This document shows, in pieces, positions 2 to 22,165 of a stretch of 62,027 bases of DNA. Every line of letters begins with the position of its first letter. Positions within the stretch are counted from its first letter, which is position 1. The DNA comes from Litorimonas sp. (GTDB lineage: Bacteria; Pseudomonadota; Alphaproteobacteria; Caulobacterales; Maricaulaceae): positions 1-62,027 of the forward strand of contig JBDVGI010000022.1 in the NCBI GenBank assembly GCA_039962885.1. Reading direction: 5' to 3'. The notes under the pieces are model-generated. The model had not been told where the DNA came from, searched no databases, and saw only the letters and a list, made by a program, of their open reading frames with translations. A program made the translations under genes and the position numbers.

Positions 2-478
2 GTGATTAAAATTGAGGATATGAGCGAGACCCAGCGGCAAGCGTGGGTAACGCTTTTGGCGGATGGAGCTGTCTTTGCTTATTTTTGGTCTAAGACGACA
101 ATCGGACTGTCACCGAAACTTATTCATACGAATATGGATGAGTTTGGAGCCATTATCATTGGCGTCGTGATTGCGACAATTATCACCCATGCCGTGATTG
201 CTTCAATCTTTGATATGCGTAGCCGCAAAGAGGCACATGAAAAGGATGAACGCGATATCGCCATTGAGCGCAAAGGCGCGCAGTGGGGTTATCATATTAT
301 GCAATGGGGTGTTGGCGGCGTCATTCTAACGATGCTGATGCATCACGGCATTGGGATAGATTATAAACCGCCTATCTCTATTCAAAAACCTGCCGAGATT
401 ATCTTTGCCCTCTTGGTGGTGAGTTATATCGCCGATTTGGCCAAGCAAGCTGTCATGATCACGGCCTATCAGGAGTAG
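2..478 (+). CDS. Small multi-pass membrane protein, DUF2178-like
   Basis: Four hydrophobic stretches. DERD..I..K motif before a TM helix, typical of membrane proteins encoded beside XRE regulators. Starts at the window edge. Confidence 0.6.
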   Translation: MIKIEDMSETQRQAWVTLLADGAVFAYFWSKTTIGLSPKLIHTNMDEFGAIIIGVVIATIITHAVIASIFDMRSRKEAHEKDERDIAIERKGAQWGYHIMQWGVGGVILTMLMHHGIGIDYKPPISIQKPAEIIFALLVVSYIADLAKQAVMITAYQE

Positions 479-482
479 CCTT

Positions 483-980
483 ATGAGTATTATGCCTGAA
501 TTAAAAAAAGACCTTATTGAGATTTTAAACAAACTCTCACTTCGAACGGTTATATCCTTATTAACGGCCGCATTATCAGGTGCTTTAATCTGGATATTAA
601 TTGACTTAAACCGCGAAGAAATGGCTGAAACGGGTCAATGGCTACCTCCCGAAAACGGCATTGGCCTATTAGCTCTTTGGTTTATTACTTATATGCTTTT
701 TATATTTTTACCTCTCATCATACTTTACCGCAAAACAGGAAATGGCGGGATTGATGAGCGGGATGCCGATCTCTATCGTCAGACAGGGGCGAATGGATTT
801 TGTATTTTACAGGTCCTGACATTCTTAGCCTTATTTTGGTATATGCGTCATGATGATGGGCTGCTTCTTTTTAATTCTATACTTGTGGCTCTATTGGTTT
901 CCGTCGCCGTTTCTTCATTCATTCTATATGTGCGTTACCGCGCGATTAGCGCACCTTTGTTATCAACGGATGATGAATAA
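483..980 (+). CDS. Membrane protein, DUF2178-like (probable distant paralogue of upstream gene)
   Basis: Four TM segments and an IDERD motif. Its stop overlaps the next ATG. Confidence 0.55.
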   Translation: MSIMPELKKDLIEILNKLSLRTVISLLTAALSGALIWILIDLNREEMAETGQWLPPENGIGLLALWFITYMLFIFLPLIILYRKTGNGGIDERDADLYRQTGANGFCILQVLTFLALFWYMRHDDGLLLFNSILVALLVSVAVSSFILYVRYRAISAPLLSTDDE

Positions 981-1210
981 TGGGCGGTAAAAAAACCAGT
1001 ATTACGAACCAGATTAAACGCATCCGTTTGGCCCGCACAGAGCTGACTCAAGCGGGACTGGCTGAGCGCGTGGGCGCAACGCGGCAAACGATTATCGCGA
1101 TTGAAGCGCAGAAATATGCGCCTTCCCTAGAGCTCGCCTTTCGTATAGCCCACGTCCTCGGCGAATCCGTAGAAGAAGTCTTCCAATTTGATTCAAGTCT
1201 TTGGGATTAA
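980..1210 (+). CDS. XRE/Cro-family HTH transcriptional regulator
   Basis: LTQAGLAERVGATRQTIIAIE..KYAPSLELAFRIA..VEEVF signature. Confidence 0.9.
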   Translation: MGGKKTSITNQIKRIRLARTELTQAGLAERVGATRQTIIAIEAQKYAPSLELAFRIAHVLGESVEEVFQFDSSLWD

Positions 1211-1348
1211 GCTTGGAAAAATTAATTTACGTGATTTACGGACACCACTCCTAGCGCCCTCTGTTCTTAAAGTAGTAGTGTAGTGTTTACTTATTAGTTG
1301 TATTGAGCGCCCTTTATTGGCGAGTTTAGATCGCTCAGAAATTGATTC

Positions 1349-1368
1349 AGATAATAAGCAGATTATCT
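1349..1368. promoter_or_regulatory. Inverted repeat AGATAAT-N6-ATTATCT, probable auto-operator of the downstream XRE gene
   Basis: Perfect 7-bp inverted repeat just before ATG 1370, with TTGATT at 1342. Confidence 0.45.
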
Positions 1369-1369
1369 A

Positions 1370-1606
1370 ATGGGTGAAATCATAGTGACACTAGACGTGA
1401 TGCTGGCGCGCCGAAAAGTGAGGTCTAAGGACTTGGCTGCCCATGTGGGAATCACCGAAGCCAACATTAGCCAGCTCAAATCTGGTAAAGTTAAAGGCGT
1501 GCGGTTTGAAACGCTTGCTGCTATTTGCGAATTTTTAGAGTGTAAACCCGCAGATATTCTCGATTACAAGCCTGACCCTGAGGAAGGGTCCAAACGCTTT
1601 GAATAG
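1370..1606 (+). CDS. YozG/HTH_26-type XRE regulator
   Basis: LDVMLARRK..LAAHVGITEANISQLKSGKVKGVRFETL..ICEFLECKPADIL signature. Confidence 0.9.
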   Translation: MGEIIVTLDVMLARRKVRSKDLAAHVGITEANISQLKSGKVKGVRFETLAAICEFLECKPADILDYKPDPEEGSKRFE

Positions 1607-1732
1607 AAAGGGCGCTTAAGTGCTTTCGGAGATATTTAAGGTAAGGCTGGATTGAAGGTGAACGCCCTTTATTGGACGAGTTTACGACGCCCTTTTAAAT
1701 TTTCCTACGCCAGCATAGGATGAATATTGTAT

Positions 1733-2470
1733 TCAAGAAGATTGGCTATTAATACGTTTAATCACTCTATCCGCAGCTCTTAAAATTATTTGAGGCATTT
1801 GCATTTCTAAATAATGAGTTCCTCCAACAATTTCTTCATAGTGAGCATTTTCCCCGATTGCATTGACAAGGGTTTGAGCATCTTCTTTTGCAACCAATGT
1901 GTCTAGTGTCCCATGAAGCACTTCGATTGGAATATTTAAGTTTTTTAATTCTTCTAATAAAGGACCGATTTGTACTCTCCGCCCTTTAATTTCGGCTCGC
2001 ATATGCTGTAATCGCCGAGGGGTAATTGGTTTTAAGAAGTCGAACTTATCGAAATCGACAATTGCTTTAGCATAATTACGAGGTTCACTAATAAGTGCGG
2101 CTCCCGTTACAACGCCTTCTATATCATCTGGGTAATTTAAAGCAGCTTTAAGAGAAATTGCTCCTCCATAGGACATTCCTAATAAAAGAGTCCGTTTATC
2201 GCTTAGAAAAGGCTCTACTATTTTGACTTGTTCATTAAAGTTTAAAACAGGGGTATCATGCGGTTTTCCATACCCTAAACGATTTACAACCACAGTTTCC
2301 AAACTATTCGGGGTTAATTGCAATAACCTTTTAAAGAGAAACGTCTGGCTTGGTGCGCCAGGTATACAAATTAACCTCCATTTTGCATGTTTTTGCCTAG
2401 AGATAATTGCATCACCCTCAAAATTCATATTTGGGATTGAAAATGTAATATGGTTATAATCTGAAGACAT
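1733..2470 (-). CDS. Alpha/beta-fold hydrolase
   Basis: GMSYGG nucleophile elbow, NRLGYG, HGTLD and GTH catalytic His. Visibly AT-richer than its neighbours. Confidence 0.85.
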   Translation of the reverse strand: MSSDYNHITFSIPNMNFEGDAIISRQKHAKWRLICIPGAPSQTFLFKRLLQLTPNSLETVVVNRLGYGKPHDTPVLNFNEQVKIVEPFLSDKRTLLLGMSYGGAISLKAALNYPDDIEGVVTGAALISEPRNYAKAIVDFDKFDFLKPITPRRLQHMRAEIKGRRVQIGPLLEELKNLNIPIEVLHGTLDTLVAKEDAQTLVNAIGENAHYEEIVGGTHYLEMQMPQIILRAADRVIKRINSQSS

Positions 2471-2609
2471 AATGTTAGCACTATAACAAGGAAACTGTTT
2501 CTTCAGCTAGAAATTCTTTTGTTCATTTTTGGAGGGACGCGGCAATTAGCGAGCGCCCTTTATTGGACAAACATCACCTCTAGTTTTTGCCCAAGCAAAC
2601 CAATTTCTT

Positions 2610-3710
2610 CTAACGTTCGCTACCCCCTGCATCATGATCTTGCCAGGCATATGGCATGGGGTTTGGCCATTCTAGGTGTTGCGCGATTATATGGGGCAGG
2701 GTGGCCTGTCCGATTATGGCGCCGACTTCGCGGTTGAAAGTTCTAGATTTATTTGAGAACTGTCCGAGCTTGGGCAAGCCGTGCGTTTCGACGGCAACCC
2801 AAACGCGGCCTTGGGTGATAAGAAACGATATAGCTGCGCGTTTTGTATCCAAAGCTTGCTGTAAATCGGCGTATAAATTATTAAACCGCATGACGCGTTC
2901 TGGGTCTAAGAATAAATGGGCCAAAGTATGATCATCTGTACTGACTTTGAAATGCTTATTAAACTTCAGGCTGGCGGTTTTAATTTTTTCTAATTTTTGA
3001 GGCGCTCCGTGTTTGATGCGTTCAAACGGCCCAGAAAAGCGGTACGTGCGGCGCGAGGTGATAAGGATACGGTTGTCTGAATCAAAATTCTCAATGTCAA
3101 ATTCCAACATCAAACCCTCAAAGACTTGGACAGTGTGTGTACGTGTGCGTGTGCGGCCTTTATTGTCGGTATAGGTTTCTGTTTCCGTACGCGTGAGGCG
3201 GGTGCCAATGGATTGCAGATTAATGGTCTGGTTGGTTACAGGGCCAAGGCCAGACAGATAATGTATATCTTCATAACGGCCCAGCAAGCCCGCTTGGCGA
3301 AAACTCTGCAAGCTCGCTGCATGGGTATGGCTGACATCATAGATATTTAAACCAATCGCTTTTTGCATGTAATCGCCAAGTTCAGATTTGGCCGCTCGCA
3401 GGGTTTTGTTTTTTTTGCGTGCCACAGAATTTGCCGCTAGAAACCCAATTGCGCTTGCGGCAAGAGCGGGAAATAACGTCTGCTGCGATACAGTATATAA
3501 TCCGAACGCCGCGCATCCCCCGCCAATAAGCACAAGGGTTTGGATGATGTTCCAAGGGTGTTTCTTCGCGCCAATTTTTGTTTGCAAGGGCGTGATTTCG
3601 GTTTCAAGCTTTGAGCCAAGTTGAGCCTGAAACGCTTGGGTTTGCGCGGCGAATATCTCTGTTGGCCAATCCCCCTCAAGCCGCTTATGTGTGGTGCGTT
3701 TACTGGGCAT
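2610..3710 (-). CDS. DUF3137-like membrane-anchored protein
   Basis: Two N-terminal TMs, T(x)n TYTDNKGRTRTRT..VFEGL hairpin, and FNKHFKVSTDD..AHLFLDP motif. Confidence 0.7.
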   Translation of the reverse strand: MPSKRTTHKRLEGDWPTEIFAAQTQAFQAQLGSKLETEITPLQTKIGAKKHPWNIIQTLVLIGGGCAAFGLYTVSQQTLFPALAASAIGFLAANSVARKKNKTLRAAKSELGDYMQKAIGLNIYDVSHTHAASLQSFRQAGLLGRYEDIHYLSGLGPVTNQTINLQSIGTRLTRTETETYTDNKGRTRTRTHTVQVFEGLMLEFDIENFDSDNRILITSRRTYRFSGPFERIKHGAPQKLEKIKTASLKFNKHFKVSTDDHTLAHLFLDPERVMRFNNLYADLQQALDTKRAAISFLITQGRVWVAVETHGLPKLGQFSNKSRTFNREVGAIIGQATLPHIIAQHLEWPNPMPYAWQDHDAGGSER

Positions 3711-4311: not shown

Positions 4312-7098
4312 TTAGGCTCCGACGACGAGTTCAAGACGGTCGAGTAATGCATCATTAACATCTCCCGTTTCAGGCAAATCGTTGGCCTTCTCAAATGCGG
4401 TAATGGCTGCGCGTGTGTTTGGTCCAATAGCTCCGTCTGCTGTTCCGACTTCATAACCAAGCTCGGCTAGGTAGCTTTGCACTTGGCGCACACGTTCTAT
4501 CTCAACGCTTTTTATGGCGGGGGTCCACGGGACATTTCGGAAGATACCATTAACCTCGGAATTTACAGGCCGAGGGGTAAAGGCCGCTATGCGAGCATCT
4601 GCGGCGCTAATTTGTTCAACACTTAATCCCTTTGTAATCAAGCTTGCGCGTTGCTGTGCAATTTGATCACCTTGATTTGCGGCGATGTTGTACCAAAAAT
4701 AAGCTGTCTCTAAATCTCTGTCGACGGGATTTCCTGACTCGGCTAATACAGCAAGATTAAATTGAGAGTCGACAACCCCGTGCTGGGCGGCTTGTTCAAA
4801 CCATCCTCGTGCAGTGGTCACATTTATATCTACGCCGCCGCGGCCATCTGTATAATATAGGGCAAGGTCATGCATGGCCACGCGGTGTCCGCTTTTGGCG
4901 GCGCGCTCTGTGAGCTGGCGGGCTTGAACTTCATCGCGTGTTACACCTTTACCGATCTCATATAGCTTCGCCAAACGATATTGGGCGGCAGGTAAGTTTT
5001 GTGCAGCTGATGCACGAATGAGTTTGACCGCCTCATCAACATTGTTTGATTTTAGATAGGCCGTACCGAGTTGATGTTGTGCAATCGGATTGCCAGCTGC
5101 CGCTGCGGTTTCAAGAGTTGCGGCCTGATTATTCGTGATGTTAGGGACAGCATTTTCAGCATATTGCCCGATTGGATTTTCCGTGGGGCCGCCAAGTTTG
5201 TGGCTGGCTTCATTGGCTTGACCGAAGACTGTATCGTCGGCGTCCTCGCTAGAGCTTTGCGCTTCACTTTGGGCCACTTTGTTTGGAATCGCAGAATATT
5301 GCCCGCCTAAGATTATTTTTCCAGCAAAGAGGGTTAAAAGAGCAATCGCGCTACCGACCAATAAGAACCGTAAATTACGACCCGACAAAGGCGTTTTTGG
5401 TAAGGCGGTTTTATGGCGTTTGCCGTTTGTATTCGTGGGTGTGCCGATACGTTCTGCACGAAGCTCATTATCTGCATAAGCTGGATCAGAATATGGCAAG
5501 GATGGTTCCACATAACCATCATCTACATAACTATCATCTTTGACATCTATGTTATGCGTGGGCAAGGCATCACGCAGTGACTGGTGGGACGATACCTGCG
5601 GCGCAGAGGTTTGTTGGTTTTGCCCCTGTGTGGCCATAGGAGGTAAATCGGGCACGGCTGGCAGATGCTCAGTTGCAACAGCTTGCGCGGAAATAGGTGC
5701 GTAGGGTTGGTTAGATGTGTCAGGCTTGACATCTATATTGGGTTGGGTGTGGGCTATGTGGTTTGGCTGAACCATAGCTGCAAGATTTTGTTGAGCGGCG
5801 ACTTGATACGCTGCGGGGTCAAATTCTGGCGGAATATGGCTGTCGATTACGGGCGCTGGCTCTTCGGCAGGTGTAACCGCTTTGCTGTAAGGGTTCAAAT
5901 CCGTCACGGCAGGCGTAAAAGCGTCATTAATAGGAACAACATTTGTTGGATTAGCAACAGAAGGCTCCGTAGGCACGGTTTGCGCCGTTGTGATATTCGT
6001 TGATGTCGGTAGTGGCGGCGCGAGATTGGTAATCGGGAGACGACTATCGTATAATGGGTTGCCGCCTGAGGCTGCATTTTGCATATCCGCTAGATGTTGC
6101 TCAAGATTACTTAAGCGGCTTTGCAGTGTTTGAATATGCTCTCCGAGCTGTTCATGATCGTCATTGGAGCTATTATTTGCAGGTGTGCGGCTAGATATAT
6201 CCACGATGCGTTGATCTACATCATTGCGGAATGCTTCAAATTCGGCTTGCGTGTCTAGCGCGATTTCAGAGATTTTTTCACCCATATGGGTGTCTATACG
6301 GCTTTGGCGTTGGTCTAACTCACCCGCAAAATTTTCAATTTTTTCGCCTAATACCTCAAGAGCGGCAGCAGTGTCGTCCTCTATGGTTTTAATATTTTCG
6401 GCCAACTGTGTTGTTTTATCATCTACAGTCTTTTCAAGCTTTGTCTCAACCGCTGTAATGGCCGCGGTTCTGTCGGCTTTATCTGCGGTAAACCGAGCTT
6501 CAAGCGCTGTTGCAAGGTTAGCTAAGTGGCGATTGACTTTGCTCAGAGCCTCGGATTGCGCAACGTTTGCGAGCGTTAGGCGCTCATCAGCGCGGCTTAA
6601 GGCAGCCTGAATTTCATTCATATCAGATGATGATACAGCCTGTGATAAATCTTTGGTGATTTCCGCTTGGCTCTGACCCATCATCCCAGAAAGCTTTTTA
6701 TTCAATGCGGTGATTTGGCGGGTAAAAGCGGCCTTTTGCTTTGTCTGACTAGCTTTAGATTGAGATTGTAGAGTGTTAACGAGCAGTTCTAAGGCTTTGA
6801 CGTTTTTGCGGGTGGTCGCATTAACGCGCTTAAGCCGTGTTTCCACTTGGATGAGCTGCTGTTGGAGTGTCTGCTTTTTAGGAGCTGTTTTGACTGTGTT
6901 TTTAACGGCTATGTTTTTAGAGGCAGAGCTCTTTGAGACAGGGCCTTTAGGGCTGGGGGCTTTTTTAACCACGCCTTTTTTAACCACGCCTTTTTTAGCC
7001 GCGCCTTTTTTTGCACCCTGCTTTTTTACGGCCTGTTTTTTGACAGTCGGTTTTATGGCTTTAGGTTTGGATTTTAAAGATGTGGAAGCAGCAGCCAT
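4312..7098 (-). CDS. podJ: PodJ-like polar localisation factor
   Basis: Architecture: long coiled coil, Pro/Gln-rich disordered region, one TM, Sel1-like repeats (AQYRLAKLYEIG, AMHDLALYY, SQFNLAVLAE), and a C-terminal PG-binding domain (ADGAIGPNTRAAITAFE). CtrA box upstream. Confidence 0.75.
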   Translation of the reverse strand: MAAASTSLKSKPKAIKPTVKKQAVKKQGAKKGAAKKGVVKKGVVKKAPSPKGPVSKSSASKNIAVKNTVKTAPKKQTLQQQLIQVETRLKRVNATTRKNVKALELLVNTLQSQSKASQTKQKAAFTRQITALNKKLSGMMGQSQAEITKDLSQAVSSSDMNEIQAALSRADERLTLANVAQSEALSKVNRHLANLATALEARFTADKADRTAAITAVETKLEKTVDDKTTQLAENIKTIEDDTAAALEVLGEKIENFAGELDQRQSRIDTHMGEKISEIALDTQAEFEAFRNDVDQRIVDISSRTPANNSSNDDHEQLGEHIQTLQSRLSNLEQHLADMQNAASGGNPLYDSRLPITNLAPPLPTSTNITTAQTVPTEPSVANPTNVVPINDAFTPAVTDLNPYSKAVTPAEEPAPVIDSHIPPEFDPAAYQVAAQQNLAAMVQPNHIAHTQPNIDVKPDTSNQPYAPISAQAVATEHLPAVPDLPPMATQGQNQQTSAPQVSSHQSLRDALPTHNIDVKDDSYVDDGYVEPSLPYSDPAYADNELRAERIGTPTNTNGKRHKTALPKTPLSGRNLRFLLVGSAIALLTLFAGKIILGGQYSAIPNKVAQSEAQSSSEDADDTVFGQANEASHKLGGPTENPIGQYAENAVPNITNNQAATLETAAAAGNPIAQHQLGTAYLKSNNVDEAVKLIRASAAQNLPAAQYRLAKLYEIGKGVTRDEVQARQLTERAAKSGHRVAMHDLALYYTDGRGGVDINVTTARGWFEQAAQHGVVDSQFNLAVLAESGNPVDRDLETAYFWYNIAANQGDQIAQQRASLITKGLSVEQISAADARIAAFTPRPVNSEVNGIFRNVPWTPAIKSVEIERVRQVQSYLAELGYEVGTADGAIGPNTRAAITAFEKANDLPETGDVNDALLDRLELVVGA

Positions 7099-13998: not shown

Positions 13999-14388
13999 AA
14001 CATACCTTAACTTGCTTCTGCCCAAACGCCTAGAGGTAATTGCATGGGTAAATTTGGTTTTATAGTTTTAATGTTTTACCTTAATTTTTCAAATTACACC
14101 AAATTTGTATTTAAGAAAACGTCAATCGAGATAATTATTATCTGTCATGAAGCTTAGTAATGTTCATAAATTTTCTCCAATTAAAGCGTAGATAATTTAT
14201 AAATTACGGGATAGATGCAAACTTATTCGCTTATGAATTTGTGAATTAAATTCTCGATAATTGCCGAAATTAGACTATGAATTATTTAACTTGCCGTTCT
14301 GTTCCGCGCCAAAATGACGGGCTTTAATTATATAAGCTATTGTTTCTATATGTGTATTTGGAATAAATATTTTTATTTCGATTCCGAC

Positions 14389-14417
14389 TTGACGTAAACT
14401 TTTTGTTAATCTATCAA
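14389..14417 (+). promoter_or_regulatory. Candidate sigma70-type promoter for the csgFG operon
   Basis: TTGACG-N17-TATCAA, preceded by ~350 bp of very AT-rich DNA. Confidence 0.4.
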
Positions 14418-14424
14418 GCTGTGA

Positions 14425-14676
14425 AGAATTGGGGGCGTACCAATCTTTACATTGTCGCTATTAAGCGTTTGCAGAGGATAGATGTATCTATCGGTCTGTC
14501 GCATGATTCTATCTATTTTAGTAAATAGGTAATCGTGATTGTAAGGATAGATGTGCCTGAAGTTCGAATGAACCGCGTGTTCAATTAGGTGTATTTATGT
14601 GCGCTAAGGGGCTCGCATAATCAAATTACGTGAACGTAGCTGTATATCTACGGAGCATGTAAGGAGAGAGGCGCAA
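14425..14676 (+). ncRNA. Candidate highly structured 5' leader of csgF
   Basis: Contiguous stems found by eye: 14428-44 hairpin, a four-way junction closed by 14443-51/14540-48, 14549-60/14585-96, 14595-620, 14626-39 and 14640-53. Many G-U pairs. Confidence 0.5.
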
Positions 14677-15315
14677 ATGAAAAGAAGACTATTAACACTT
14701 ATGTTGCCGATAGGCGCAGCTGTGACGGCTTTAGGATTTTCTATCCCCTCTGCCGCCCAAGATTTAGTGTACACACCGATCAATCCTTCATTTGGCGGCA
14801 ATCCTTTTAATTCGGCACATCTCTTGGCGATTGCTAATGCGCAAAATGATTTTGAACCAGAGAGTGATGAGGACAGCACGCAGTCAGACCTTGATCGCTT
14901 TATTCGGTCTTTACAAAGCCGGCTTCTATCGTCGCTCTCCACGCAAGTCGCCAATGCCATATTCGGCGAAGATGCGCAGGATGAAGGTACGATTGTTTTT
15001 GGCGATCAAACAATTTCTTTTGTTCGTGGTCTTGACGGGATTGAACTGACCATCACCGAGGGAGATGGCTCCCAAACGGTTATTACGGTTCCAACCTTTA
15101 CATCTACAGCAGGCGCAGTGACCGATACTTCGGCGCAACCCAGCACATCTGTTCAGCCGCTTACAGCCCCAGCTACGGCGACAGCTCCGAGTTCGTCGGT
15201 AACAGCATTTGGGCTTCCATCGACAGCAAGCCCGCAGGTTAATCAGACAACAGGATCAACATCTTTATTATCGCTACCGCCATTATCTCAGGGTTTCGGT
15301 CAACCGATTCAATAA
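14677..15315 (+). CDS. csgF: Curli assembly protein CsgF with S/T/P-rich C-terminal extension
   Basis: Signal peptide, then LVYTPINPSFGGNPFN..LL..ANAQN (CsgF signature). AAGGAG RBS. Confidence 0.92.
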   Translation: MKRRLLTLMLPIGAAVTALGFSIPSAAQDLVYTPINPSFGGNPFNSAHLLAIANAQNDFEPESDEDSTQSDLDRFIRSLQSRLLSSLSTQVANAIFGEDAQDEGTIVFGDQTISFVRGLDGIELTITEGDGSQTVITVPTFTSTAGAVTDTSAQPSTSVQPLTAPATATAPSSSVTAFGLPSTASPQVNQTTGSTSLLSLPPLSQGFGQPIQ

Positions 15316-15362: not shown

Positions 15363-16463
15363 TTGTTAAACAAAGTATTTAAATATAGGCGGCGCAAAAT
15401 CGTCAATTGGCTAATGGCAAGCAGCTGTGCAGTTATGATGAGCGCTTGCACGACTGTTCCAGCTTCACATGATTTTTTGACAAGTGAAGCAAAGGTGACG
15501 AAAATTACGAAGACACAATTGGCTTTAAAGGCTTTGTCGCCACCAGAAAATAAGGTGACCGTGGCGGTTTATAATTTCGAAGATAAAACAGGGCAATTTA
15601 GACCGTCAGAAACAGGTCAAACATTATCACGTGCAGTCAGTCAGGGCGGGGATGAAGTTCTTATCAAAGCGTTGCAAGATACCGGAAACCGAAGTTGGTT
15701 CACGGTAATTGAACGCTCTAATTTGAATAATTTGTTAAAAGAGCGTCAAATCATAACAGAGATGCGAGCTAGATATTTAGGCGAGACAAAACTTAATTCT
15801 AAAGCTCTGCCGCCGCTTTTATTTGCGGGTGTTATTTTTGAAGGCGGTATTGTTGGTTTTGATACAAATACGCTGACAGGTGGTGTGGCTGCGCGCTATC
15901 TTGGCATTGGCGGACAGACTGATTATCGCCAAAGTGTTGTCACCGTGCATCTGCGTGCGGTGAGTGTGAAAACAGGCGAAGTTTTAACGTCTGTCACAAC
16001 GGAAAAAACAATTTCATCTGTTGGCATAGCTGCCAATGCTTTCCGTTTTGTGACGTTTGATAATTTATTAGAGGCAGATGCGGGTGTGACATCCAATGAA
16101 CCGGGTTTACTTGCGCTGCGCCAAGCGGTTGAAAAATCTGTCTACGCGCTTGTCATGGAAGGGTCTGAGATTGGGCTGTGGAATTTCTTTGATAAAGCTG
16201 AAGGATATGCTCTGTTACAAGATTATAAATACGAGCGCGATGGAGTTCGGTTAAAAACAAAGCCGAACCCAAAGCTTGCGCAGGCAAAACCTGCTGGCCT
16301 TAAGGCAGCGGATCAGACCTATAAAAATTCTGTTCAAACATCAATTACAACAGAAGACACGCCGCAAATTAACGGTAATCAAATAAAAGAACCCGCCTCT
16401 AAACAGGCGCAGTTTCAGGGAGCGCCGGATCAAAATATTACCGGTGTGAAACCTGTAAATTAA
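15363..16463 (+). CDS. csgG: Curli secretion channel lipoprotein CsgG
   Basis: Lipobox MSAC, VAVYNFEDKTGQF, SRAVSQG, WFTVIERSNLNNLLKERQII, GGIVGFDTN..GG.AARYLGIG, NEP. Confidence 0.95.
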   Translation: MLNKVFKYRRRKIVNWLMASSCAVMMSACTTVPASHDFLTSEAKVTKITKTQLALKALSPPENKVTVAVYNFEDKTGQFRPSETGQTLSRAVSQGGDEVLIKALQDTGNRSWFTVIERSNLNNLLKERQIITEMRARYLGETKLNSKALPPLLFAGVIFEGGIVGFDTNTLTGGVAARYLGIGGQTDYRQSVVTVHLRAVSVKTGEVLTSVTTEKTISSVGIAANAFRFVTFDNLLEADAGVTSNEPGLLALRQAVEKSVYALVMEGSEIGLWNFFDKAEGYALLQDYKYERDGVRLKTKPNPKLAQAKPAGLKAADQTYKNSVQTSITTEDTPQINGNQIKEPASKQAQFQGAPDQNITGVKPVN

Positions 16464-16464
16464 T

Positions 16465-16800
16465 CACAGACACGTCCTTAGAGACGATGCTGTAATAAGA
16501 GCTCTCAACGCCATCTGGCGATGAGAAAATGGCAGTCACGCATCACGGCAGGTAAATGTTTTGCTATGTTATGAAAGTGGCGGCTTTCGCAGATTAAGAC
16601 CGAATGGCAGTTCGATCTTATCTGTCTTGAAGACAACGGTAATATACCGGGAGACATGGATGCTCATTGGACAACACATGACACGGTGGTACAGACCACC
16701 TGCGAAACCCGCCATATTTGTGTTATCACAAATATACAGGGCTTCACAGACCTATTTACATAGGACTACAGCTGGATTGATCTCTAGCTTTGTAACCCAA
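16465..16800 (+). ncRNA. Candidate large structured RNA in the csgG-curlin spacer
   Basis: 16-bp long-range stem 16577-92/16700-15 (one mismatch) enclosing 4-5 hairpins, flanked by further hairpins. Confidence 0.5.
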
Positions 16801-16869
16801 ATTCTATCCATATTTTTCGTAAACATTAACCAGTGTCTCGACTTAACCGTCAACCCTTAAGCTTGAAGT

Positions 16870-17011
16870 TTAGGTTTGGTGGGGCGTTATCAATAGAGTT
16901 TCGCGTGAAAATATTAGCGCGAAATTTCGATGATTAAAATCTGAACTACGCTTCCGTGGGAGCGTTGTTTTAACGAAACTATTAAAATGAGCAAAGCTCT
17001 TGGAGACAAAT
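16870..17011 (+). ncRNA. Candidate structured leader of the first curlin gene
   Basis: Hairpins at 16876-93, 16896-927, 16944-69 and 16989-99, then GGAGA RBS and ATG 17012. Confidence 0.45.
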
Positions 17012-18997
17012 ATGAAAAAATTATTATTAACCGCATCTATCCTTGCCGTATCGGCGGGTCATGCATACGCTCAGGTCACGCCTGAAGCTCCCGTCACGAA
17101 TTTTGTGCCGCCAAATGTACAATTAAGTGACATTGTTCAACTGGGAACAGACAATAACGCTACTGTTGATCAAACAGGTGGTTCTGAAGGTGTCTCTGAC
17201 ATTAATCAGGCAGGCGACGATAATGTAGCGAGTGTGACACAATCAGAAACGTCTGGTGCGAGTAACACGTTCAATACACCTGCAAATATCGCAGACATTG
17301 ACCAAACTGGTTCAGTCAGCAATGCAGTTGTTACTCAAAATAATGGCGATGCTAGAGGCCCATCAAATACAGCTGTTATCCGCCAAGACGCGTTTCCACT
17401 CGCGACAACCCCGTCTGGTTTTAATTTAGACGCGGCCATCATACAAGATGGTACAGGCAACCAATCTAGCATTGTTCAAACTGGTGCAACATTTGGTGAT
17501 TCATCAGGCTTAAACGCTGTGAACAACCAAACAGGTAATGGAAACCTATCTGCAATTAATCAAGATGGTAATACTGATGCTAGCCCATTTACGGACGCCA
17601 GTGTAACGCAATCAGGTGACAACAACCAATCTGATGTATCACAATTTGGGAGTAACCTTTTAGGTACGGTAAACCAATTTGGTGTCGACAATAGTAGTTT
17701 CTTGACTCAGCAAGGTGATAACCACGTGGCTGATATTTTCCAAGATGGCGTGAATAACTCATCTGAAGTTAATCAGTTCTCTGTTGTGGGCGCTGGCGGT
17801 TCGGATGCTGATGTGGACCAAACAGGAGATGATAACATCTCTACGATTAATCAAAATGCGTTAGGTGATCCATCGGGTCTTATCTTTGCGACAGTTAATC
17901 AAAGCGGCAATGGTAATACTTCTGATGTTGCGCAAACGGCATCTAGTGCAAATTCTGGCGGGTTAATAGCGAATGTAAATCAGGGCGGCGATGGTAATGA
18001 TTTATTACTTACGCAAGAGGCTTCTGGTGATCCATCGGGCGGTCTTGCTGCATTTGTAGATCAATCTGGTAGCGATAACCTATCTGATATTACGCAAAGC
18101 GCATCGGGTTCACCGTCTGGCGCTGTTTTGGCTAATGTTGATCAGTCAGGTTCTGGCGGAACTGCGATTGTGATACAAAATGCTGATGGCGATTGGTCAG
18201 GCGCTTTTGCGGCTAACGTAAGTCAAGGCGGGTCTGATAATACAGCGTTTGTTGATCAAAATGTTGTTCAGGATTCTGTGAATTTTGCAAATGGGTCAGG
18301 CGCTTTTCTGGCAACAGTTACGCAAAACGGAACAAATGGCACAGCCGATATTAGCCAAAGTTCTGATACACGAAACGATAACGTGTTATTAGCCTCTATA
18401 GACCAGATCTCTGGAGACTTGAATTTTGCGTCTATTTCTCAGCAAGATGATGATAACACAGCTATCATCTCGCAGGACGGAGATACCAATAGTTCAACAA
18501 TTTTCCAAGATAGTGATGGCAATCCTGCAAATGGCGGCAATGGTGAAGCCCGCGGTAATACTGCGAGCAACACGCAAGTTGGTAGCGATAACATCTCAGC
18601 TATTAGACAAGGTCAGTTGAACAATTCAGCGACCGTTGAGCAAATTGGCGATGGAAATTCTAGTGATGTCGATCAAGCCTTAGGTTTCGATAATATTGCT
18701 CTAGTGGCACAAAACGGAACGGGCGGAATATCAAATGTTCTGCAACGCGGGAATGGTCAATTTGCTTCGCTTCTACAATCTGGTTTGGATAATGAGAGCA
18801 ATATTTCGCAAGACGATGGCCTTACCGGCACAGGTGGAAACCAAGCTTTCGTAACGCAAAGCTCTGATGATAACCTTAGCAATATCTTGCAAGAAGGCAC
18901 AGGCAATGTTGCGACTGTTAATCAGACTGTGACTAACGGGAATGTGTCAAACATTACGCAAACAGGCAGTGGTAATATTGCGACTGTTAATCAGTAA
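17012..18997 (+). CDS. csgA: Very long curlin-repeat amyloid subunit (CsgA-like 1, ~24 repeats)
   Basis: Sec signal (MKKLLL..AYA), then continuous N-x-A/S-x-I/V-x-Q-x-G repeats ending exactly at ..NIATVNQ. Start moved from TTG 17000 to ATG 17012 because of the RBS. Confidence 0.88.
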   Translation: MKKLLLTASILAVSAGHAYAQVTPEAPVTNFVPPNVQLSDIVQLGTDNNATVDQTGGSEGVSDINQAGDDNVASVTQSETSGASNTFNTPANIADIDQTGSVSNAVVTQNNGDARGPSNTAVIRQDAFPLATTPSGFNLDAAIIQDGTGNQSSIVQTGATFGDSSGLNAVNNQTGNGNLSAINQDGNTDASPFTDASVTQSGDNNQSDVSQFGSNLLGTVNQFGVDNSSFLTQQGDNHVADIFQDGVNNSSEVNQFSVVGAGGSDADVDQTGDDNISTINQNALGDPSGLIFATVNQSGNGNTSDVAQTASSANSGGLIANVNQGGDGNDLLLTQEASGDPSGGLAAFVDQSGSDNLSDITQSASGSPSGAVLANVDQSGSGGTAIVIQNADGDWSGAFAANVSQGGSDNTAFVDQNVVQDSVNFANGSGAFLATVTQNGTNGTADISQSSDTRNDNVLLASIDQISGDLNFASISQQDDDNTAIISQDGDTNSSTIFQDSDGNPANGGNGEARGNTASNTQVGSDNISAIRQGQLNNSATVEQIGDGNSSDVDQALGFDNIALVAQNGTGGISNVLQRGNGQFASLLQSGLDNESNISQDDGLTGTGGNQAFVTQSSDDNLSNILQEGTGNVATVNQTVTNGNVSNITQTGSGNIATVNQ

Positions 18998-19061: not shown

Positions 19062-20594
19062 ATGAATAAATTACTTATTATATCCACCTCGCTCTTAACA
19101 ATGTCATCTTTTGGTGCTTATGCGCAAACTGTACAAACATCAGACATAGTGCAAACGGGAATAGAAAACTCGGCTACGGTTGATCAAACCTTAGGGCAAG
19201 AAGGTATCTCTGATATCACGCAGAACGGCAGTGAAAATACATCATCTGTGACACAAAGCGAAAACTTGATTGGGAGTGACACCTTCACGATTCCAGCTAA
19301 TGTCGCTACGATTGAACAAGATGGTAATGAACAAAGCGCTACCATCACCCAAGTGAATGAAGTGACTCCGACAACAGGCCCAACAAATTCCTCAACTATC
19401 CTCCAAAGTGATGATGGCTCCGGAGCCTTGACGTCTGATGGATTTACACTTCAAGCAACTTCCACGCAAAATGGGACAGGCAATACGGGTTTAATCATAC
19501 AGACAGGCAGCGACAACTTTGCTCTGACGGAACAAAATGGCCAAACGAATGACAGTTTTGTTACGCAAGAAAACATTAATAACCGTGCATTTCTAAATGA
19601 GCAGGGTTTTGGTTTTAACCTTAATGGAGCAAATAACACCTCTGCCATTACGCAAACAGGTCAAGATAATCTGGCTCGCGTTGATCAAGATGGTGATTTT
19701 TTAAGCAGCGATATTTTGCAAACAGGTGACGGTAACCGCGCGCGTGTTCGTGATCAAAATGCGTCAAATAACAGCTCCATTATTATCCAAGACGGTAATG
19801 ACAATGATGCTGATATTAATGACCAAGGCGCGGAACCTGGAACTGCCAATCTCGGCAGCGGCAATATCAGTACGATCTTGCAAACAGGCGATAGTAACTT
19901 GGCAAGCTTGAACCAAACCGGAAATAACAATTTGAGTGAAACAGTCCAAGATGGCTTCTCTGATGTTACGGGTGTCGTTCAAACCGGCAATGGCAATGAA
20001 AGCTTTGTTCTTCAGCTAGATACTGGGTCTGATAATGAAGCTCAAGTTACGCAAAGCGGCGATGGTGGCACAAGTAATGTGTCACAAGGCGCAGGCTCTA
20101 ACAATATTGCAACCCTTGTGCAAGCAGGCGAAGGCAATGCTTCCGTTATTGTTCAAGATGGTAATGATAATATTGCTTTTGTTGAGCAAGCCTTGGAAAA
20201 TAATAGCTCCGATGTTTTACAAATTGGTGACAATAACGAAGCTAATGTTGATCAAACGGGCGTCATAGGCGAGTCTGTGAGTATCGTACAAATTGGCTCT
20301 GAAAACTACAGCGAACTTGATGACACAGGTAATGATAATGCCTCTGACATTTTGCAAACTGGGACATTAAACTATGCGGATGTTCTTCAAACAGGATTTG
20401 ATAACCTATCTGAAATTTTTCAAGATGGAGCATCAAACCGAGCAGAGGTGACTCAAGGGTCGGATGGTAATTTAAGTTCAATCATCCAAACTGGAACGTC
20501 CAATCTCGCGGTGGTTGATCAATCTGTGACGTCAGGAAATGTGTCGAACATTTTACAAGACGGAACGTCTAACCTCGCAACTGTCCTACAATAA
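19062..20594 (+). CDS. Long curlin-repeat amyloid subunit (CsgA-like 2, ~20 repeats)
   Basis: Signal ..AYA-Q. About 40 Q-terminated beta-strand motifs. Termini clearly homologous to curlin 1. Confidence 0.88.
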   Translation: MNKLLIISTSLLTMSSFGAYAQTVQTSDIVQTGIENSATVDQTLGQEGISDITQNGSENTSSVTQSENLIGSDTFTIPANVATIEQDGNEQSATITQVNEVTPTTGPTNSSTILQSDDGSGALTSDGFTLQATSTQNGTGNTGLIIQTGSDNFALTEQNGQTNDSFVTQENINNRAFLNEQGFGFNLNGANNTSAITQTGQDNLARVDQDGDFLSSDILQTGDGNRARVRDQNASNNSSIIIQDGNDNDADINDQGAEPGTANLGSGNISTILQTGDSNLASLNQTGNNNLSETVQDGFSDVTGVVQTGNGNESFVLQLDTGSDNEAQVTQSGDGGTSNVSQGAGSNNIATLVQAGEGNASVIVQDGNDNIAFVEQALENNSSDVLQIGDNNEANVDQTGVIGESVSIVQIGSENYSELDDTGNDNASDILQTGTLNYADVLQTGFDNLSEIFQDGASNRAEVTQGSDGNLSSIIQTGTSNLAVVDQSVTSGNVSNILQDGTSNLATVLQ

Positions 20595-20613
20595 TATTGA
20601 ATGTATATTCAGG

Positions 20614-20631
20614 GGTGCCCTTAAGGGCACC
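20614..20631. terminator. Intercistronic palindrome/hairpin
   Basis: GGTGCCCTTAAGGGCACC perfect palindrome after curlin 2. Confidence 0.5.
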
Positions 20632-20645
20632 TAACCTTCTAATAT

Positions 20646-21470
20646 ATGAGACATGATATGATACAGCTATTATCAAAACAAATCGCCGGGAAAGGGTTGC
20701 CTTTAGGCCTTATAACGGGCGCAATTCTTGTTGCCCTCGGCCAAGATGTTGTAGCGCAAGATAATATTGCGATTGCGTCTAGTTTGGTTCAAGTTGAACA
20801 AATAGGACAAGCAAATTTAGCTTTGGTCACGGTTGCTGAGCAAAATGTTGTAACGGCAAACCAGAATGGCCAAAACAACACTTTAGTTTTATCAGTTGAC
20901 GGTCAAAATAATGGCATCAATCAATCGCCCTTGAATATAGAACAATCAGGGCAAGGTAATCGTGCCTTGGTGACGATTACAGGGGATGAGAATGATCTTG
21001 TCATCACGCAAAATAGTGACGGCGCGATCAATGATGTTGTTGTCAATCAGGACGGGCAATTTAATTCTGCGAGTATCACCCAAGATGCGACCGGACTTTT
21101 TGACGGGCTTGCGAACCAAGCAGAGCTGAATCAGATTGGTCAAAATAATTTTGCAAATATTACGCAAACCGCTTTTGCATCTGGAACAACGCTTTTCAAT
21201 AACGACGTTCTTATAAATCAAACAGGTAATGATAATATAGCAAACTCTACACAGTCAGGTGTGAATAATAGATCTGAACAAGAACAGGTTGGGGATAGAA
21301 ATCAATCTGAAATTATTCAAACAGGCAATGATAATGTTGCGGTTCATCGACAATTTGGAAATGACTTAACCGTTCCTTCGGACCTTGGCGGTCTTGTTAT
21401 CGAACAAACAGGCGGAGCAACTATTTTAGTTGAGCAATATAGCGCAGACTTCGCGCCTTTGCCGCAATAA
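20646..21470 (+). CDS. csgB: Minor curlin / nucleator (CsgB-like)
   Basis: Signal peptide and curlin repeats, with a degenerate C-terminal repeat (IEQTGGATILVEQY) resembling CsgB ends. Confidence 0.65.
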   Translation: MRHDMIQLLSKQIAGKGLPLGLITGAILVALGQDVVAQDNIAIASSLVQVEQIGQANLALVTVAEQNVVTANQNGQNNTLVLSVDGQNNGINQSPLNIEQSGQGNRALVTITGDENDLVITQNSDGAINDVVVNQDGQFNSASITQDATGLFDGLANQAELNQIGQNNFANITQTAFASGTTLFNNDVLINQTGNDNIANSTQSGVNNRSEQEQVGDRNQSEIIQTGNDNVAVHRQFGNDLTVPSDLGGLVIEQTGGATILVEQYSADFAPLPQ

Positions 21471-21484
21471 TAATTAGATAAATA

Positions 21485-22165
21485 ATGTTTGGATTGGGAT
21501 ATTTTATGAGCAGCGCCAAATTGCATCAAGGCACATCTTTGCTAAGCCTTACGCGAATATTGGCTTTATGTTGTATTATTTCTACCTATTTTCTAACGGC
21601 ATGCTCACATAGTGCTCAGTTAGACAATCCTCCATTAAATAAAGCTGGCATAAAAAATGACACAGGCCAGCAGGGTGATTTATCCCATCAAAGCTCCCAG
21701 CTTGCTCCGTCTGTCAGCGTGTCGCAAATTGGTGATAAATCACAAACTTTAACCACTCCGCAAATAGATGCACCATCCCAGACGAAACCGCAATTATCCG
21801 TAGAACAGCTTCGTATATTTGCGGATCGTTGCGAGAAGGATAGCCCGACACCTCCGCCAGAAGGCCTAGATTGTTCTGAAATAGATTTGCGTATGCAACG
21901 CCTTCTGAGCGCTGATGATAATATTATTGATGCTTTAATAACATTGGGACAATTGGGCCGAAATGATAATTTGGCACGAACAATAGATGATTTAAATGTT
22001 GGGACGTCGCGGCAGACATTGATAGGCGGAGCTATTGGTGGCGGGTTCGTAAATCCTCCTCCGCCGCCAGAAACCGCAACGCCTGAACCTAGTCCAGAGC
22101 TTGAACAGTTTTTGCAAGACAATGGATTAATTCTTAATCAATTTATTATCCCGCAAGGGCCGTGA
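21485..22165 (+). CDS. Hypothetical lipoprotein in the curli operon
   Basis: Lipobox FLTAC, Cys pair DRCEK..LDCSE, Pro-rich tail. Starts 14 bp after the csgB-like stop. Confidence 0.65.
   Translation: MFGLGYFMSSAKLHQGTSLLSLTRILALCCIISTYFLTACSHSAQLDNPPLNKAGIKNDTGQQGDLSHQSSQLAPSVSVSQIGDKSQTLTTPQIDAPSQTKPQLSVEQLRIFADRCEKDSPTPPPEGLDCSEIDLRMQRLLSADDNIIDALITLGQLGRNDNLARTIDDLNVGTSRQTLIGGAIGGGFVNPPPPPETATPEPSPELEQFLQDNGLILNQFIIPQGP

Follow-up and report, generated by a model that had tools for sequence, protein, structure and literature searches.

Between csgG and the first curlin gene of a Litorimonas curli operon lies an RNA element that, on comparative sequence evidence, is a real structured RNA, uncatalogued as far as searched, with two alternative folds predicted for it. 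Its conserved unit is, by the same comparison, a six-helix junction (16577–16715 of the window, the whole 62,027-nucleotide stretch of DNA that was analysed), a strand upstream of it (U, 16523–16539) and a downstream hairpin. New here is the upstream strand, which covaries with, and is predicted to compete for, the 5′ strand of P1, the junction-closing helix. We consider it rather probable that the element is a two-state cis-regulator of the curlin genes. The initial annotation had proposed an undescribed curli-associated structured RNA in this spacer, and that proposal is upheld by 12 homologous copies in the same spacer, strong covariation, single copy number and the lack of any Rfam match. 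It had left the role open between ncRNA, processing element and cis-regulator; a cis-acting two-state element is now favoured and a free ncRNA disfavoured, because the conserved upstream strand competes for the core-closing helix.

The operon is arranged as csgF, csgG, two long curlin genes and a csgB-like gene (Table 1). The spacer is bounded by the csgG stop (16463) and the first curlin AUG (17013); three curlin-repeat genes lie on one side of it, csgF and csgG on the other. An AT-rich intergenic region of 650 bases (14026–14676) separates csgF from a divergent Fur-family gene and is the likely site of the operon promoter; a sigma-70-like scan returned 7 sites against 7.2 expected, and no conserved promoter or terminator was seen for the element. 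Behind the csgB-like gene is a gene for a 226-aa putative lipoprotein (21485–22165), with homologs in L013, L015, L017, L019 and L020 and no Pfam, NCBIfam or ESM Atlas assignment; it is a possible accessory curli gene. In a class-wide search, the operon's downstream lipoprotein gene was found in its own genome only, among 401. The genome also encodes rho and an RNase J-like gene that scores below the family cut-off.

Table 1. Features of the curli operon and of the csgG–curlin spacer (window positions; pairing values from the homolog comparison).
Feature	Position	Strand	Description
csgF	14677–15315	+	PF10614, E 4e-32
csgG	15363–16463	+	PF03783, E 2.5e-53; gene upstream of the element
Two local hairpins	16466–16525	+	Predicted fold; just 3′ of the csgG stop, outside the conserved core
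U strand, purine-rich	16523–16539	+	P1 3′ mimic, complementary to P1 5′; weakest in this genome
P1 5′ strand	16578–16589	+	Pairs with 16703–16714 or the U strand
P2, long hairpin with nearly invariant tip	16590–16624	+	Tip helix 92.9% paired; 5/7 pairs with two-sided change
P3, short variable hairpin	16624–16634	+	58.8% paired; weakest helix
P4 hairpin	16637–16649	+	86.7% paired; 2/5 pairs with two-sided change
J4/5, purine-rich single strand	16650–16654	+	Shine-Dalgarno-like
P5, irregular helix	16655–16680	+	67–75% paired; contains AUG 16660–62
Candidate leader ORF, 66 codons	16660–16860	+	3′ two thirds of the 99-aa ORF
P6 hairpin	16685–16700	+	86.1% paired; 5/6 pairs with two-sided change
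P1 3′ strand	16703–16714	+	Model-fitted alignment
P7 hairpin	16714–16735	+	Conserved UAYCAY word at 16724–29
D strand	16739–16745	+	May pair with the released P1 3′ strand, or with U; tentative
C-rich, G-poor tract	16796–16855	+	18 C against 5 G over 60 bases; possible Rho entry site within the leader ORF
First curlin gene (csgA-like)	17013–18997	+	PF07012, E 7e-41; AUG at 17013
Second curlin gene (19062–20594) and csgB-like gene (20646–21470)	19062–21470	+	

Folding of 16465–16800 gives −106.9 kcal/mol (z = −5.0), a value matched by none of 100 dinucleotide shuffles, as the initial annotation had anticipated. The minus strand of the same segment reaches z = −5.9, so folding alone cannot assign the strand. 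The excess is centred on 16575–16717 (z = −5.6); z is −3.0 for 16712–16800, −2.8 for 16800–17012 and only −1.7, no better than chance, for 16465–16576. The helices first read from the spacer are all present and lie where they had been placed, save that the first hairpin starts at 16466, not ~16467. Their long-range stem is likewise real, but the homologs set it at 16578–89 with 16703–14 and make it more likely that 16590–92 opens P2. Two wider claims did not hold: a single multi-domain RNA of 336 bases gives way to a conserved core of only ~140 bases, and the second junction is unsupported as a conserved feature, since RNAalifold returned 0 consensus pairs over 16700–16830 in a poor alignment of 6 close homologs. 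No consensus structure was recovered downstream of P7 in these 6 homologs, poorly aligned as they are. The two hairpins just behind csgG (16466–16525) carry no U-tract, and terminator calling gave none there. Three more hairpins, not evident in homologs, stand ahead of csgA at 16850–16970; the last (16948–65) is terminator-like and lies 47 bases before the csgA AUG. Hairpins of this last kind are not common in the homolog spacers, judged by eye, and no conserved intrinsic terminator was found. Strain-level differences in DNA contigs are few in the spacer among those listed, and were not used as evidence.

Homologs were gathered from 38 csgG loci of a genome collection by profile search and reading of the spacers, which gave 10 copies including the window's own. 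A covariance model of these 10, searched over 61 sources, brought in two extra copies from outside the training set, L075 and L076 (E 1e-19 and 8e-14). The element occurs once in each of the 12 genomes, which belong to two Caulobacterales families, and always on the sense strand of the spacer that separates csgG from the first curlin gene; any two cores are 41–99% identical. Named carrier records include Litorimonas, Algimonas and Parvularculaceae, with cultured Litorimonas represented by L015 and L016. A DNA search of 41 related genomes recovers one other copy, in the same spacer, covering only 16575–16828 at 79% identity. Whole-genome model scans yielded a strong single match in 6 of 48 genomes of the genus, together with one weak unrelated match (E 0.006); for the family to which the Parvularculaceae record belongs, the figure was 6 of 151. 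The element was never found away from csgG–csgA in these 48 and 151 genomes. Within its own family, csgG is detected at E ≤ 1e-85 in 9 of 257 genomes, 6 of which are carriers. A tree of 15 CsgG proteins places the 12 carriers and one short-spacer non-carrier in a single clade (support 100/100). Two Parvularculaceae-family loci, L072 and L073, are without the element, their spacer (after 2493) measuring only ~130 bases; because the CsgG of L072 falls inside the carrier clade, that locus has probably lost it. The distance from csgG to the core varies from 56 to 704 bases among carriers. L020 has a 700-base gap there, and in the same locus (362–3029) extra lipoprotein and csgB-like copies, partly inverted, lie upstream of csgF.

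Beyond the carriers, 30 Hyphomonadaceae csgG loci (of 45 places) gave no model match, and 18 other loci searched with filters off gave none of significance (best E 0.042). Pattern scans added nothing further. The metagenome scan matched 9 loci, of which at least 4 among the matches listed lie within unrelated coding genes and 7, tested in the model, gave no match; these were counted as chance. The order-wide scan matched 9 places in 8 of 401 genomes, 6 of them known copies, and the remaining 3 had no significant model match. Other lineages have other leaders at this spot. In Sphingopyxis and Erythrobacter (L021–L027, ~5970–6200) the leader is different and smaller, with a hairpin bearing a CGGCAA loop and a second hairpin directly ahead of the csgA start; these leaders match none of the element models, and L022 has no Rfam match. 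In Hyphomonadaceae loci (L088–L117) there are two or three further kinds of conserved leader, 100–280 bases long and rich in hairpins, in which a GGGGAC word often follows a hairpin. A third spacer type is found in L008 (2476–2830) and L009 (2494–2900), which belong to the window's own family and genus, and has the word TGGTGCTCG twice in each. Searching Rfam 15, including c-di-GMP-I (RF01051), with the window spacer returned 0 matches at E ≤ 10; at the gathering score there were 0 matches in 4 loci, and in 8 loci the only two matches were weak, outside the core and far below the gathering score.

The core is defined by covariation. RNAalifold, given 10 sequences aligned by MAFFT alone, recovered 27 pairs, 18 of them with two-sided changes. 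In a model-fitted alignment of all 12, pairing holds in 81.4% of 548 cells, and two-sided changes occur in 28 of 46 pairs. None of 500 shuffles equals either figure, and slid alignments are 30–46% paired; this alignment does lean toward structure, and kinship inflates the shuffle test. The covariation sought in homologous loci is strong. Table 1 gives the values helix by helix; P1 itself has 88.9% of cells paired and two-sided change in 7 of 12 pairs, and P3 and P5 are the least supported helices (59–75% paired). We infer the plus strand from the U-G pair that is invariant at the P2 tip and from the many G-U variants. UAYCAY, which in most homologs lies in or next to the P7 loop, has no cis pairing partner in the aligned region.

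The P2 loop (16606–09, K-G-C-A) forms the 5′ arm of a proposed pseudoknot with 16661–64 in P5, which would cover the U-G of the AUG at 16660–62. Across the homologs pairing is possible in 43 of 48 cells, and one pair covaries, its variable position changing in concert in 4 sequences; L016 and L018 break this pair and L075 has an altered loop. The stem is among the best five-pair stems in an unbiased scan, and since 17–32 of 500 shuffles do equally well, a borderline result, we grade the pseudoknot as probable only.

Strand U consists of six purines followed by Y-G and lies 24–119 bases 5′ of the core in 12/12 copies. A motif-free search of the 122 upstream bases returned it as the top partner of P1 5′ in 10/12, and cognate pairing of U with P1 5′ exceeds non-cognate pairing (p = 0.004; 0.010 without the near-duplicates L048 and L013). 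Kinship among the 12 sequences makes this and every other p-value here look stronger than it is, and U came to light only after tests of other pairings. Four control core strands, compared with shuffles, showed no excess of pairing upstream. With the register fixed, 105 of 132 cells pair (p = 0.004; 0.010–0.036 without close kin), around an invariant purine-purine mismatch in the middle of the helix. Column 10 is U-A in 4 sequences and C-G in 6; in column 12 the 3 sequences that have C pair it with G, and two of these three are mismatched in P1 itself. MAFFT by itself aligns the U word in 10/12, where 89 of 100 cells pair against 30–53% when slid and only 5–7 of 500 shuffles do as well. When P1 5′ is forced onto the upstream sequence, U ranks first among 12–25 possible partners in 10/12, and the alternative helix is strong in 7/12; L015 and L016 have a strong one. 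The window's copy is the weakest: 7 of 10 pairs form in the fixed register, U ranks 4 of 15, the open fold lies 7.8 kcal/mol above the compact one and 58% of random windows score equally, although an alternative, bulged U register offers 11 pairs. L013, L018, L020 and L075 fail the random-window test too (0.25–0.72), making 5 of 12 copies in all. Taken over the homologs, the covariation of U with P1 5′ marks U and P1 3′ as competitors for one partner.

Because U competes for P1 5′, two folds of similar energy are predicted, compact (P1 formed) and open (U with P1 5′). In short segments they differ by at most 5 kcal/mol in 11/12 copies. When 130 downstream bases are included the open fold is preferred in 10/12, not in the window's genome, so that a conserved compact fold would need extra stabilisation. 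The probability of P1 is at least 0.97 without upstream sequence in 8 of 12 short constructs, and at most 0.4 with upstream sequence in 8 of 12. Strands released by such an exchange may find partners downstream. The best partner of P1 3′ starts 18–28 bases past the core in 8/12 (D), and a cognate test of D as the specific partner was not significant (p = 0.35); a 32-base strand of P6 plus P1 3′ gave p = 0.016, and U against the downstream leader p = 0.02. A four-strand swap, in which D would take the freed P1 3′ strand or U, is a lead from these comparisons.

Inside the core, an AUG follows a GGAG/GGGG-type word in J4/5 by 5–6 bases in 10/12 copies (16660 in the window); for the other two we chose, post hoc, a GUG at the same place (L076) and an AUG 12 bases further on (L018). 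The frame so opened runs 47–116 codons in 12/12, always above the shuffle median (single-sequence p = 0.014–0.31), and beyond the core the combined p is 0.008–0.024, against 0.2–0.8 for the other two frames, which makes the excess there suggestive. Its stops vary from 157 bases before csgA to overlap with csgA, and the internal AUG is mostly out of frame with csgA. Should this leader ORF be translated, what counts would be translation itself and not the peptide made. The ORF crosses a tract in which C minus G is at least 11 per 60 bases in 10/12; the pyrimidine richness of the tract beats shuffles in only 2/12. The csgA AUG itself lies 170–300 bases past the core and has its own purine-rich site. 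Direct outputs on csgA were tried and set aside: an anti-Shine-Dalgarno switch involving the junction strand, the pyrimidine tract and the csgA start (cognate versus non-cognate p = 0.84 and 0.19), and a specific long helix of J4/5–P5 with the downstream leader (p = 0.29). Duplexes at the csgA start site beat shuffles in 1/12. In nested folding the internal Shine-Dalgarno and AUG are no more accessible in the open fold, where access with long downstream sequence drops to 0.10–0.29 in 7/12; J4/5 is about half unpaired in compact nested folds and more buried in open ones.

These observations can be assembled into a working scheme for a two-state regulator. The element would be co-transcribed with csgG in the operon mRNA; read-through from csgG is suggested by L075 and L076, whose cores begin 56–57 bases past the csgG stop. 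U, transcribed first, would keep the junction open by default, and in this state a ribosome could load at the internal Shine-Dalgarno-like J4/5 and AUG. Translation of the leader ORF, through P1 3′ and on over the C-rich tract, would then block Rho, leaving the curlin genes ON. A metabolite or a protein would be the signal that stabilises the compact fold, with the pseudoknot hiding the AUG; with no ribosome loaded, Rho would stop the transcript ahead of csgA (OFF), and csgF and csgG would still be made. We hold this full chain, from opening by U through ribosome loading and Rho protection to signal-driven shut-off, to be plausible, if somewhat short of an even bet. As nested folding gives no better access to the start in the open fold, the sign is uncertain and ON and OFF could be reversed. 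A bolder version is a new riboswitch class in the curli operon of CsgD-less marine Caulobacterales, in which a 5′ strand would hold the aptamer open by default, a small signal would trigger the four-strand swap and the pseudoknot would hide the leader ORF start; this we offer tentatively and think somewhat unlikely. Cyclic di-GMP or an amino acid such as glutamine as the signal are guesses.

An unlikely competitor is a processing or stabilising element, in which a cut between csgG and the core would let the compact fold cap the curlin mRNA at its 5′ end, protect it from decay and give many curlin subunits per secretion channel, the cap staying unfolded until the cut removes U. The dependence of P1 on upstream sequence is as this would predict, as are an intercistronic place ahead of abundant curlin subunits, the different structured leaders that other lineages have at the same spot, and the RNase J-like gene, below its family cut-off though it is. 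Six helices and invariant loop words are, however, more than a 5′ cap requires; such a cap leaves the Shine-Dalgarno–AUG spacing and the open frame unexplained, and no conserved cleavage-like word was seen between U and P1. The competing-helix evidence applies in full to a switch of opposite sign or other output, where the compact state is ON, J4/5 serves csgA as a ribosome loading or standby site and the leader ORF is incidental. We judge this fairly unlikely: the exposure of J4/5 in compact nested folds speaks for it, and distant action has a precedent in the S. meliloti metA SAM-II riboswitch (available text of PMC9373788), but the precedent acts over 74 bases, against 170–300 for the csgA AUG, which has a purine-rich site of its own, and the proposed pseudoknot would hide the AUG in the compact state.

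Release of an independent ncRNA from the operon transcript, to act in trans or to bind a curli biogenesis protein, would suit the closed, ornate fold, its conserved loop words, a UAYCAY without cis partner and the variable distance to both neighbouring genes. It is improbable given an element confined to csgG–csgA in the genomes scanned, for which no conserved promoter or terminator was seen, and a conserved cis competitor strand would be hard to explain. The same spacer might instead hold a small accessory protein gene, csgH-like for example, in the 99-aa ORF or its 66-codon part, with structure secondary. The frame is open in every copy, and a search for CsgH elsewhere in the genome was blank, its control being silent too. 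Yet the peptide is not conserved, with dN ~ dS in 7 pairs and no third-position bias; L015 and L048, whose cores are 99% identical, are separated by a frameshift in their ORFs; the frame upstream of the internal AUG closes within 3–13 codons in 5/12 and ORF lengths scatter; the 99-aa ORF has no Pfam match and neither ORF an NCBIfam match. The 99-aa ORF, whose translation the initial annotation had named as fatal to its RNA, is accordingly rejected as a conserved protein, and the protein-gene reading, largely refuted, is very improbable. That the element is a mobile repeat of MITE or REP-like type, or folds by chance alone, is hardly credible: direct and inverted near-repeats do occur inside the element, U resembling P1 3′, but a single genomic copy, a fixed position across the csgG clade and covariation down to 41% identity refute both. 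The two-state cis-regulator remains the reading we prefer.

Curlin genes encode the stoichiometrically abundant subunits of curli. Alphaproteobacteria lack csgD, and single-operon curli systems need control during or after translation, as the portion of PMC3521004 available argues; the element is a concrete candidate for such control. Were a ligand to drive the switch, it would be a new riboswitch class tied to a functional amyloid, uncoupling amyloid synthesis from that of the secretion channel. Its range is limited: 12 genomes, two families and a small clade of curli operons. The different, unmatched structured leaders at the same spot in other lineages suggest that curlin genes are under a general form of RNA control that has gone undescribed. 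Titles and abstract beginnings of the open-access curli and csg literature searched describe no such RNA, an entry in a candidate table being possible, and curli or csg terms are absent from the available parts of the PMC11109978 main text, preprint 10.64898/2026.10.21.760802 and the PMC8632094 supplement.

The element would work, on comparative grounds, like a riboswitch or attenuator leader, and belongs to no Rfam 15 family. With riboswitches it shares a covarying structure at a consistent place before a consistent gene and an alternative structure mutually exclusive with the closing helix; no intrinsic terminator or anti-Shine-Dalgarno acting on the main gene was found. c-di-GMP-I riboswitches have three helices and a GNRA loop. 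According to the accessible text of PMC9481103, they (RF01051) occur in tandem with glycine riboswitches before curli genes, the sole curli–riboswitch link in the literature searched. Like these and other competing-strand riboswitches, our element is a covarying cis element ahead of biofilm or curli genes, with a P1 closing helix, a mutually exclusive alternative and a compact fold that is not the ground state in full context; unlike c-di-GMP-I it is an intercistronic six-helix junction, its competing strand lies 5′ of the core and it has no Rfam match. A c-di-GMP-I search of its own genome was blank, with the control silent as well.

Among leader-ORF attenuators, mgtL/mgtA and tnaC are coupled to Rho. 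The element resembles such attenuators and uORF motifs in having a Shine-Dalgarno-like word and an AUG within conserved structure, a consistent downstream gene and a C-rich tract within the ORF. It differs in lacking a conserved stop, length, sensing codons, coding-type conservation or intrinsic terminator, and in its ORF of variable length and far more elaborate fold. uORF motif candidates in the part of PMC11109978 available include fthC and ilvB; by the standard set there, the element has the conserved start with Shine-Dalgarno (same place in 10/12), without a conserved in-frame stop or coding-type conservation. In the S. meliloti metA SAM-II riboswitch, as the available text of PMC9373788 has it, a Shine-Dalgarno inside the riboswitch acts on translation at a distance; ours is likewise an alphaproteobacterial leader with a Shine-Dalgarno and AUG in a pseudoknotted RNA far upstream of the main start, unrelated in sequence and fold, at 170–300 rather than 74 bases and mostly out of the csgA frame. 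REP elements and the Rhodobacter puf hairpins are simple intercistronic mRNA stabilisers that mostly protect the upstream gene. As with these, structure here lies between genes needed in unequal amounts; the dispersed copies of MITE or REP families and the conserved, family-matched protein of a CsgH-like gene are both absent, and the element stands apart from REP and puf hairpins as a single-copy, multi-helix RNA with a conserved alternative fold.
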